DNA from: Ruminococcus sp.
Lineage (GTDB): Bacteria; Bacillota; Clostridia; Oscillospirales; Acutalibacteraceae
Direction of reading: 5' to 3'
Assembly (NCBI GenBank): GCA_045603105.1
Contig: JAZULM010000020.1
Span: 1,284-65,283 of the forward strand
DNA: 64,000 bases
Below are positions 3,511 through 3,707 of the stretch, in pieces (positions within the stretch are counted from its first letter, which is position 1; every line of letters starts with the position of its first letter). A program made the position numbers and the translations under genes. Under the pieces are notes generated by a model. It did not search any database. It was given only the letters and a program-made list of their open reading frames with translations, and was not told the origin of the DNA.

Positions 3511-3662
3511 AACGGGGAGCCCCGTTATGTCCTGTTGCGGTGCCCGACTTTGTCGGCGCAGACTGTAGCTGATTGCCAATCGTCGACCGCTGCCACTCCT
3601 TATTGCTCGCTTCATCTGCCACAGGCAGCGCTCGCAAACGTCCCCACTTCGATACGTATCCA
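3511..3662 (-). pseudogene. Interrupted, 3'-truncated second copy of the tRNA-Ser 5' part
   Basis: 3644-3662 matches tRNA 3442-3460 with one mismatch (ccacttcgatacgt[a/c]tcca). 3518-3529 matches tRNA 3429-3440 exactly (agccccgttatg). A 114-bp insert lies between the two matches; no anticodon, T-arm or CCA follows. Confidence 0.8.
3530..3643 (-). other. 114-bp GC-rich multi-hairpin insert in the D-loop position of the tRNA copy (possible small mobile/repeat element or ncRNA)
   Basis: Hairpins CTGCC-TGT-GGCAG and CCGAC-AAA-GTCGG; enclosing stems TTGC-GA-GC/GC-GA-GCAA and GCGGT/ACCGC; starts and ends with GGA on the minus strand. Confidence 0.65.
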
Positions 3663-3678
3663 TAAAATCGACCTCTTA

Positions 3679-3707
3679 ATTTTACTAATATAAAGCTTAA
3701 AAGTCAA
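3679..3707 (-). promoter_or_regulatory. SigA-type promoter upstream of the interrupted tRNA copy
   Basis: TTGACT (3707-3702), 17 bp, TAAAAT (3684-3679); predicted start about 10 nt before the tRNA-like 5' end at 3661. Confidence 0.6.

Follow-up and report, generated by a model that had tools for sequence, protein, structure and literature searches.

What is a GC-rich insert of 114 nucleotides (nt) doing inside a partial copy of a serine tRNA gene that stands beside its intact counterpart? This question is raised by a 64,000-nt stretch of Ruminococcus sp. DNA (Acutalibacteraceae; contig JAZULM010000020.1, positions 1,284 to 65,283), here called the window, in which the 5′ part of tRNA-Ser(CGA) is present twice on the minus strand and the upstream copy is interrupted by the insert at 3643-3530. 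An earlier reading of the locus (the original prediction) had offered three explanations, namely, a nonautonomous mobile or repeat element that targets tRNA D-loops and leaves an intact gene, a tRNA-derived noncoding RNA (ncRNA) of about 160 nt, and an intervening sequence. Our analysis assigns the insert to an uncatalogued family of Oscillospirales (class Clostridia) repeats that are dispersed, noncoding, highly structured, and approximately 115 nt long. The finding is more general than the observation that led to it: it concerns a bacterial dispersed structured repeat with an unusual link to the ends of stable RNA genes.

Results

The insert is one copy of a structured repeat family

All features of the locus lie on the minus strand and are given in reading direction, from 3707 downwards. 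The partial tRNA-Ser(CGA) copy consists of two direct repeats that are separated by the element. The repeat before the element (D1, found by local alignment; GGATACGTATCGAAGTGG, 3661-3644) corresponds to linear tRNA positions 1-18 with one mismatch; it takes in the 5′ strands of both the acceptor stem and the D-stem and continues into the D-loop as far as GG; together with 3 leader bases, it forms a 21-nt repeat with 95% identity (3664-3644 versus 3462-3442). The repeat after the element (D3; CATAACGGGGCT, 3529-3518) matches positions 20-31 exactly and spans the D-stem 3′ strand up to the start of the anticodon stem. It is part of a 15-nt repeat with one mismatch and 93% identity (3532-3518 versus 3443-3429; tRNA positions 18-31), and this arrangement recurs in other tRNA-Ser loci. 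The predicted partial tRNA copy is real, but it starts at 3661 and not at 3662. The 114-nt length of the insert and the 58-nt gap between the truncated copy and the intact tRNA-Ser(CGA) (3459-3371; ARAGORN; Rfam RF00005, 52.1 bits) were found as predicted, as was the higher GC content of the insert (58%, compared to 24 to 28% in its flanks).

A covariance model of 66 homologues recognized the element over 3650-3530 with 98.9 bits (E = 1.8e-26). This was the only real match in the 64 kb, and no further copies were found in the window, where the chance expectation for 31-mers was 0. When one genome per species was scanned with a 21-mer from the core of the element (CTGCCTGTGGCRGATGAAGCG), 118 contigs matched, almost all of them from Oscillospiraceae, Acutalibacteraceae, Ruminococcaceae, and unclassified or other Clostridia of the animal and human gut. 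Similar strings beside tRNAs in gut Clostridia, to which the original prediction had pointed at its close, do exist. Three matches beyond Clostridia scored only 21 to 24 bits with the model, and their number is close to the estimated number of chance matches for the pattern. The nearest relative of the window's tRNA-Ser locus (L019 in our numbering of loci; CAYZPT010000017.1) lies on a contig that was binned as "uncultured Bacteroides sp."; because the distribution is otherwise strictly clostridial, this label is probably a binning error. Covariance model R1 gave 120 matches in the 100 loci that were retrieved; some of these hold tandem arrays, and as many as three copies occurred within 8 kb. 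In four gut metagenomes, contig depth at 3583-3648 was 20 to 100 times that of the flanks, and the same was seen in four metatranscriptomes.

Rfam 15 yielded only the tRNA and a ZTP riboswitch in the window at gathering thresholds. At E ≤ 10, nothing credible in 3300-3800 overlapped 3530-3650, and no hepatitis delta virus (HDV), hatchet, twister, pistol, hammerhead, or hairpin ribozyme fitted. Literature searches by sequence string and by topic returned no description of the element, although it may be among the unnamed entries of large catalogues of candidate RNAs.

Searches of 2.9 million viral contigs gave 0 and then 3 matches, and phage records gave none. A phage origin was rejected on the grounds that the element is rare in the former and absent from the latter. 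The exact core is nearly absent from viral contig collections despite copies between phage-type structural genes in L005 (2541-4164; terminase/portal) and L122 (24848-39306; terminase, N4-gp56-type capsid, and lysin region).

The fold is conserved and covaries

The comparative analysis was based on 66 nonidentical copies of the commonest type, all of which had been found with the 21-mer from the core. They share a two-domain fold, in which a helix (P1) encloses an invariant core and is joined by a purine-rich linker to a long hairpin (P3), whose base and bulge are conserved. The core (GAGCG-CUGCC-UGU-GGCAG-AUGAAGCGA; 3633-3607) was identical in 66/66 aligned copies, with 21 of its bases being those used for finding the copies. 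It is made up of tandem G.A/A.G pairs followed by two G-C pairs, an internal loop of the 1x5 type (G opposite AUGAA), and a hairpin whose 5-bp stem carries a UGU loop. P1 (3637-3603) pairs UUGC (3637-3634) with GCAA (3606-3603) in covarying columns, with CG 28, GC 26, and AU 4 among the 66 copies. P3 (3590-3537) has the base GCGGU (3590-3586) paired with ACCGC (3541-3537), a conserved GGGC bulge, and a variable stem and tip, the latter of which includes GCCGAC-AAA-GUCGGC in the window copy. The element begins with GGGGACG and ends with CAACAGGA; the consensus 3′ end is CAACAGG.

Pairing was maintained in 93.8% of the paired cells, compared to 30 to 59% when the partners were slid by 1 to 3 columns. 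Cells in which both sides had changed numbered 191, compared to 65 ± 6 in shuffles, none of which (0/500) reached 191, and 12/22 pairs were compensatory. The P3 base helix was 99.7% paired, and in the P3 outer stem 8/8 pairs had changed on both sides. Two of the predicted stems proved to be family features. CTGCC/GGCAG is invariant in the aligned copies, and GCGGT/ACCGC shows compensatory change in 3/5 pairs (1 to 2 sequences each); the proposed tandem G-A positions are invariant. The predicted CCGAC/GTCGG hairpin is present in the window copy but is specific to it, being part of the variable P3 tip. In Vescimonas, the core hairpin itself covaries (CCGCC-GGU-GGCGG form), with a U-A pair changed to C-G. 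Folded as a single sequence, the insert is no more stable than shuffled sequences (z = -0.33). Therefore, the case for the fold rests on comparative data and not on folding energy. The original prediction had named a single copy, a lack of covariation, or a strong Rfam hit as results that would speak against it; we found a multicopy family with significant covariation and no strong Rfam hit.

A second type of element has the same P1 and core with another 3′ hairpin, in which an internal loop is conserved (ACAAGGAG...CGACUAUGU) and possibly represents a tandem-G.A or k-turn-like motif (L001, L006, L016, L021, L037, L040, L083, and others). When the core was compared by eye with HDV-like and hammerhead ribozymes, the k-turn, loop E, the 11-nt receptor, and domain IV of the signal recognition particle RNA, none of them fitted. 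Part of it is identical in 12/13 positions to what we take to be a segment of Escherichia coli 4.5S RNA, a likeness that is probably due to chance.

Copies are linked to fragments of stable RNA genes

In 26 loci, including that of the window, the element lies directly 3′ of a tRNA 5′ fragment, and the matching intact tRNA follows 87 to 321 nt downstream on the same strand. The order of fragment, element, and intact gene was observed for eight tRNA species (Ser-CGA, Ser-TGA, Ser-GCT, Leu-CAG, Leu-TAG, Leu-CAA, Pro-TGG, and Asn-GTT). Most loci have the junction in D-loop-encoding DNA; in L042, it falls behind position 37 in the sequence for the anticodon loop, and in L076 in that for the variable-arm loop. 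In L075 and L089, it is the tRNA 3′ part (variable region or T-loop to CCA) that is duplicated, with the duplicate downstream of the intact gene. In L010, L029, L108, and L116, the element adjoins 3′-end fragments of 5S rRNA in antisense orientation. The predicted repeat element that leaves an intact gene is thereby favored, but targeting of the D-loop is too narrow a description: approximately a quarter of the copies are tRNA linked, and junctions also lie in fragments ending in the anticodon loop, variable arm, or T-loop and in 5S fragments.

Several of these loci are composite. L010 (238-356) and L029 (76-362) have insertions in a partial 5S copy beside the intact 5S, with two insertions in one fragment in L029. 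In L057 (about 3433-3950), the intact gene is preceded by a nest of three partial tRNA-Ser(CGA) copies whose ends lie at approximately 17, 18 (with the element), and 43; an open reading frame (ORF) resembling a tyrosine recombinase lies about 1.5 kb away. Tandem arrays were seen in L066 (about 1958-2276), L101, L016 (4541-5052), L089 (6446-6763), and L018 (4029-4338). The array unit in L066 and L101 consists of tRNA fragment, element, tail, and leader before one intact tRNA-Leu, and L016 has 106-nt units head to tail after tRNA-Pro.

The edges of the duplications tend to coincide with mature RNA termini, and the duplicated pieces meet the element where tRNA loops are encoded. From the left repeat end to the core hairpin, the distance is always 14 to 17 nt, and this constant offset gives the element a precise 5′ boundary. 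In 13/25 loci, the left edge of the duplication has a position of -1 to -5 relative to the mature 5′ end of the tRNA. Three young repeats are 100% identical (38 nt from -1 in L042, 24 nt from -1 in L047, and 24 nt from -2 in L063), and the sequence just upstream is unrelated; thus, the edge is real in these cases. In L084, L088, and L097, where a further tRNA of the operon lies upstream, the repeat begins within 2 to 8 nt of the 3′ end of that tRNA; in L011, it begins 14 nt after the -10 box. In L075 and L089, it ends at CCA.

Between species, the fragment changes in step with the acceptor-stem sequence of the intact tRNA to which it belongs, which is consistent with gene conversion between adjacent repeats. 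A spliced intervening sequence, the third of the original explanations, received no support: the interrupted copy lacks the tRNA after position 31, and thus the whole 3′ half, and no intron model matched. Group I, group II, and bulge-helix-bulge introns were rejected on this basis.

Most copies are free-standing and dispersed

Apart from the tRNA-linked quarter, most copies are free-standing and intergenic and occur in either orientation. For about 65% of the copies, no flanking repeat above chance was found, and the remainder have repeats of variable length (19 to 118 nt); target site duplications (TSDs) of 2 to 10 bp were not specifically looked for. The two ends of the element are not inverted copies of each other, and no terminal inverted repeats were found. 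There is no shared target motif in the 5′ flanks (AAGT, AATT, TGACG, TTTG, CCCG, and ATGG). When the approximately 760 ORFs adjoining the 118 loci were clustered, no recurrent neighbor gene emerged, and no co-occurring transposase, for which the original prediction had suggested a search, was found among them. Cis-regulation of a downstream gene was rejected because orientation relative to ORFs is unbiased in the loci from metagenome-assembled genomes (MAGs).

Copy number varies greatly, from 1 in the 64 kb of the window to approximately one copy in every 9 kb in Vescimonas fastidiosa MM35, a cultured strain (replicon NZ_AP023416.1). There, blastn gave 11 places, and the model found 15 copies in the 140 kb sampled. 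All 15/15 lie in gaps between annotated genes and 12/15 on the plus strand; the copies at the nusA/infB and rpsF regions are in sense orientation between codirectional genes. In V. fastidiosa (L122, NZ_AP023416.1 733798-773918; L123; L124), a further GC-rich hairpin repeat, GGGGCGG...CCGCCCC with UACGGAAGCGUAAC after it, is often fused to the element or harbors it in its loop, and the closing stem CCGAUGUGG...GGUCAUCGG of several copies of the element resembles the D-arm of tRNA-Ser. Location within the loop of a preexisting hairpin was rejected as a general rule: some copies have clearly complementary flanks, but the overall enrichment of such complementarity is weak (P = 0.08). In L046, identical inverted copies (1839-1959, plus-strand partner 4185-4305; the former on the minus strand) each lie within a longer inverted duplication and flank dnaA, one upstream of the gene and the other in the dnaA-dnaN spacer, likely in the origin region.

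Near-identical copies with unrelated flanks occur inside one genome. Together with the uneven copy number, the arrays, and the insertions into pseudo-fragments, they argue for spread of the element. One further observation points in this direction. At L042, both flanks were covered at depth 11 with approximately 95% identity in run X44 while the element had depth 0; in three other runs, depth over the element was that of the flanks. The gap in X44 is suggestive of a presence/absence case.

Promoters precede most tRNA-linked copies examined, and the tRNA-Ser(CGA) arrangement recurs across species

A sigma-70-type promoter, predicted as TTGACT-17-TAAAAT, was recovered by promoter scan with 10/12 matches (TTGACT, 3707-3702; 17 nt; TAAAAT, 3684-3679). 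The end of its TAAAAT box is separated from the tRNA fragment by a 17-nt leader. This promoter should drive the tRNA fragment and the element and probably also drives the intact tRNA. Downstream of the element, the truncated copy is closed by a pair-back hairpin (AACGGGG-CU-CCCCGUU, 3526-3511), read from the sequence, which corresponds to the predicted AACGGGG/CCCCGTT pairing and recurs in other tRNA-Ser(CGA) loci (e.g., L014, L019, L093, L087, L039, and L109; in some slightly shorter). An AT-rich spacer follows (3510-3460), in which the predicted sequence TGTTATACT is present as a possible extended -10 box (3490-3482). The terminator scan found no terminator-like site between the element and the intact tRNA, and the sole intrinsic terminator, a 10-bp stem followed by a T-run, ends the transcription unit at 3364-3341. 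A single transcript from the upstream promoter is therefore plausible, and the suggested tRNA-derived ncRNA of about 160 nt would be compatible with such cotranscription.

TATAAT-like -10 boxes, several of them TG extended, lie upstream of most tRNA-fragment copies examined. None was found in L084, L088, and L097, where another tRNA is located directly upstream. In metatranscriptome contigs, the core is present and joined to tRNA 5′ fragments.

The tRNA-Ser(CGA) arrangement was found in at least 10 species. The core is intact in all of them and the tail hairpin is present in all, in some slightly shortened. P1 occurs in compensating variants (UUUGC/GCAAA versus UGCC/GGCA), and P3 is wholly different in sequence and still paired; the spacer to the tRNA is unalignable, and the neighboring genes differ. 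Judged from these comparisons, the core and helices at this locus appear to be under selection in place.

Surroundings of the locus

A 13-nt inverted repeat with 92% complementarity (AAATATTCAATTT/AAATTGAATACTT; 3746-3734 and 3505-3493) brackets promoter, fragment, element, and tail; it flanks the whole unit in the window only. A TTGAAT motif recurs 3′ of the tail in other tRNA-Ser loci. The neighbors are ordinary chromosomal genes, namely, those for a cell wall hydrolase, a HemN-like radical-SAM protein, and RF3, with pyruvate formate-lyase (PFL) and its activase downstream. A ZTP (pfl-motif) riboswitch (3234-3154, minus strand, 57.3 bits) lies just 3′ of the tRNA terminator and directly upstream of the ORFs for PFL (867-3098) and its activating enzyme (160-864, both minus strand), which is the classic context of this riboswitch. 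In other species, no synteny of the tRNA-Ser locus with PFL or the cell wall hydrolase was found. The window also contains no integrase gene.

Discussion

How the element may have come to lie in a duplicated tRNA end

On balance, we consider it probable that the insert is a nonautonomous structured dispersed element, that part of the tRNA-Ser gene was duplicated when it arrived there, and that it is now part of a precursor made from the old promoter. An element landing in a stable RNA gene would come to sit inside a duplicated end piece beside the intact copy. In the window, the first ~31 nt of tRNA-Ser(CGA) would have been duplicated, with the element in the part encoding the D-loop, and the duplication would have preserved a functional tRNA. 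The original tRNA promoter would drive fragment, element, spacer, and intact tRNA as one precursor, from which RNase P would free the element-bearing leader.

As for the route of spread, we tentatively regard an RNA-templated one, comprising reverse transcription, template jumps, and recombination, as the most likely, at a confidence well short of even. An RNA copy of the element would be made in a manner resembling short interspersed nuclear elements (SINEs), with the reverse transcriptase jumping among the tRNA fragment, the element RNA, and the mature or precursor tRNA, and the chimeric cDNA would then recombine into a tRNA gene. The conserved fold would be what the processing or mobilizing machinery recognizes. 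Edges at RNA termini and junctions at loops are what would be expected of a copy made from RNA, while duplication at the DNA level would give no reason for such edges. tRNA loops are sites where tRNAs are cut into fragments. More speculatively, the element could be a bacterial counterpart of SINEs, a small structured RNA, possibly with a self-trimming 5′ end, for whose copying a trans-acting reverse transcriptase would jump between templates. The precise 5′ boundary and the invariant core are the only hints of possible self-cleavage of the element.

Several observations weigh against this account. No reverse transcriptase, transposase, or nuclease was found among the ~760 neighboring ORFs, a search that did not extend to whole genomes. 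The metatranscriptome contigs carry no strand information and could reflect DNA carryover, and the approximately equal numbers of G-U and A-C in covarying pairs mean that wobble pairs are no proof of RNA over single-stranded DNA. For the putative empty site at L042, read mapping gave no bridging contig, and a search of metagenome contigs with the L042 leader gave 0 matches. Only one copy is present in the 64-kb window, and the locus in this genome may be old, fixed, and possibly domesticated rather than active. Some edges do not fit either: the duplication in L076 apparently includes the -10 box and so extends beyond the likely transcription start, and those in L014 and L039 are much shorter than the leader and end well short of the start. 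In old repeats, a conserved tRNA part next to a decayed leader could by itself give the appearance of an edge at the mature 5′ end. The antisense 5S cases (L010 and L029) are unexplained by a single-cDNA model.

Other explanations of the insert

Movement as DNA, which we consider unlikely though deserving of attention, would have folded single-stranded DNA recognized in trans by an HUH/Y1 enzyme (as in REP/REPIN-RAYT or IS200/IS605-like systems) or by a hairpin-targeting recombinase, with the duplications arising by replication template switching at structured, highly transcribed genes. It would readily accommodate an element that is strand specific, hairpin rich, and devoid of terminal inverted repeats and of a coding gene, as well as the copies in the loop of another GC-rich hairpin repeat and the lack of a preference for G-U over A-C; the antisense 5S cases are easier to explain in this way. 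The left boundary at a constant 15 to 17 nt from the foot of the core hairpin would also fit, as ends of IS200/IS605 elements have a similar fixed offset. Against it stand the 5′ flanks without a common tetra- or pentanucleotide target, the dissimilarity of the two main hairpins, the lack of a Y1/HUH gene among the ~760 neighboring ORFs, and repeat edges at mature RNA termini, which have no obvious cause at the DNA level. Tandem G.A/A.G motifs and GNRA-like tips are typical of RNA and favor the given strand and an RNA form. Derivation as a palindrome-associated element from IS200/IS605 was rejected for want of a conserved target motif and of copies bearing tnpA or tnpB among the 118 loci (whole genomes were not searched). 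About as improbable in our estimation is a host, domesticated ncRNA, that is, a multicopy gene or cis element for a protein-binding or RNA-stabilizing RNA comparable to repetitive extragenic palindromic (REP) sequences in 3′ untranslated regions and operon spacers. The copies in tRNA leaders would then serve the stability, processing, or regulation of the tRNA precursor, to the putative benefit of the host, and pairing of the D-stem 3′ strand with either the D-stem 5′ strand or the pair-back segment could be a switch. Retention of the core and compensating helices at the tRNA-Ser(CGA) locus across many species while spacers decay speaks for such a role, as do the strong promoter before most tRNA-linked copies examined, the sense copies between codirectional genes at nusA/infB and rpsF in V. 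fastidiosa, and the presence of the core in metatranscriptome contigs. Conservation of the core across families is likewise expected of the binding site of a conserved factor. A host RNA would not be expected to lack any orientation preference toward neighboring ORFs (MAG loci) or to vary so strongly in copy number between the window genome and Vescimonas; the near-identical copies with unrelated flanks, the arrays, and the insertions into 5S and tRNA pseudo-fragments resemble spread, and the partial gene duplications would be left unexplained by a host RNA alone.

Two further explanations concern the insert itself, and both are far less probable. The 54-amino-acid ORF at 3663-3499 (minus strand), which runs through the core (...CERCLWQMKR...), is very unlikely to be a small protein gene. 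It has an AAGAGG Shine-Dalgarno sequence 8 nt upstream, it starts 2 nt before the tRNA fragment, and the same peptide string occurs in ORFs over other copies; yet start, stop, and frame are not conserved, and indels between copies are not multiples of three. A common variant at 3617 is nonsynonymous (Q to R) yet keeps the base pair as G-U, and variation follows helix pairing instead of codon position. The small-protein reading was rejected on the strength of the indels and this pattern of variation. Least probable of all, to the point of being negligible, is that the tRNA 5′ end underwent a local tandem duplication, which decayed and took up a random GC-rich insert that belongs to no family and has no function. 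The unremarkable folding energy and the single copy in the window would suit it, but it is refuted by the 118 contigs with an identical core, the significant covariation, and the same architecture at eight tRNA species.

Comparison with known repeat elements

In its workings, the element appears most similar to dispersed repeats of the REP/BIME type or of the BOX/RUP/bcr1 type, yet it is a member of none of them. The REP/BIME/REPIN sequences of Proteobacteria, which are mobilized by REP-associated tyrosine transposases (RAYTs), are likewise short, noncoding, GC rich, structured, and present in many copies in intergenic and intraoperon spacers; they are transcribed within neighboring RNAs, encode no protein of their own, and form mosaics with other repeats, as the element does in Vescimonas. 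However, REPs are imperfect palindromes or inverted pairs of 20 to 40 nt with a GTAG head and are species specific, whereas the element is a ~115-nt fold of two unlike domains with one and the same 27-nt core in several families. Near the element, no RAYT was found, a negative that does not extend to whole genomes, and REPs are not known to be accompanied by duplicated tRNA gene ends. BOX/RUP (Streptococcus pneumoniae), bcr1 (Bacillus cereus group), ERIC (enterobacteria), and MITEs (miniature inverted-repeat transposable elements) resemble the element in size (100 to 150 nt), high copy number, intergenic location, evidence of transcription, and modularity, the latter corresponding to the two alternative 3′ domains of the element. 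It differs from them in its much deeper conservation with true compensatory covariation, its association with stable RNA gene fragments, the lack of flanking repeats found at most free-standing copies, and the lack of terminal inverted repeats, for which reason a MITE was rejected.

The favored model works like SINEs, the chimeras that arise by template switching in eukaryotic non-LTR retrotransposons (for example, U6-L1 chimeric pseudogenes), and R2 (with a 5′ HDV-like ribozyme, in rRNA genes), in which a reverse transcriptase copies a nonautonomous RNA in trans. Features shared with the model would be junctions at RNA termini, cotranscription with a host stable RNA, a precise 5′ end, a variable 3′ tail, and flanking duplications of variable length; the element differs in being bacterial and in having no linked reverse transcriptase, A-tail, or Pol III promoter. 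Elements that integrate into tRNA genes (attL/attR) likewise come to lie between a partial tRNA copy and an intact tRNA. Their length is in the kilobase range, an integrase gene is part of them, and the duplicated tRNA part is nearly always the 3′ one, in contrast to a unit of ~200 bp in which usually the 5′ part is duplicated. Integrative att-site duplication was rejected, as the repeats are ~200 bp apart with no recombinase or kilobase-sized cargo between them. Rickettsia palindromic elements and mitochondrial GC-cluster/double-hairpin elements, finally, are small GC-rich structured repeats that insert in genes, including RNA genes, of AT-rich genomes; they are simple insertions tolerated in functional genes, whereas the element described here lies in a nonfunctional duplicate beside the intact gene.

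What the family means for Oscillospirales

If the reading favored here is correct, gut Oscillospirales carry a large, deeply conserved, and hitherto uncatalogued family of folded repeats. A 27-nt core that is invariant across the sampled copies, found as they were with a 21-mer from it, implies a conserved partner, be it a protein, an enzyme, or self-catalysis. The elements will confuse the annotation of tRNAs and ncRNAs as well as metagenome assembly in this order, and V. fastidiosa MM35, as a cultured carrier, makes experiments possible. If true, the order of fragment, element, and intact gene with edges at RNA ends and loops would constitute a testable case for RNA-templated genome change in bacteria and a way for a mobile element to enter an essential single-copy tRNA gene without destroying tRNA function. 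Should the element be a counterpart of SINEs, this would represent a mode of retroposition undescribed in bacteria, by which the genome records tRNA fragments.

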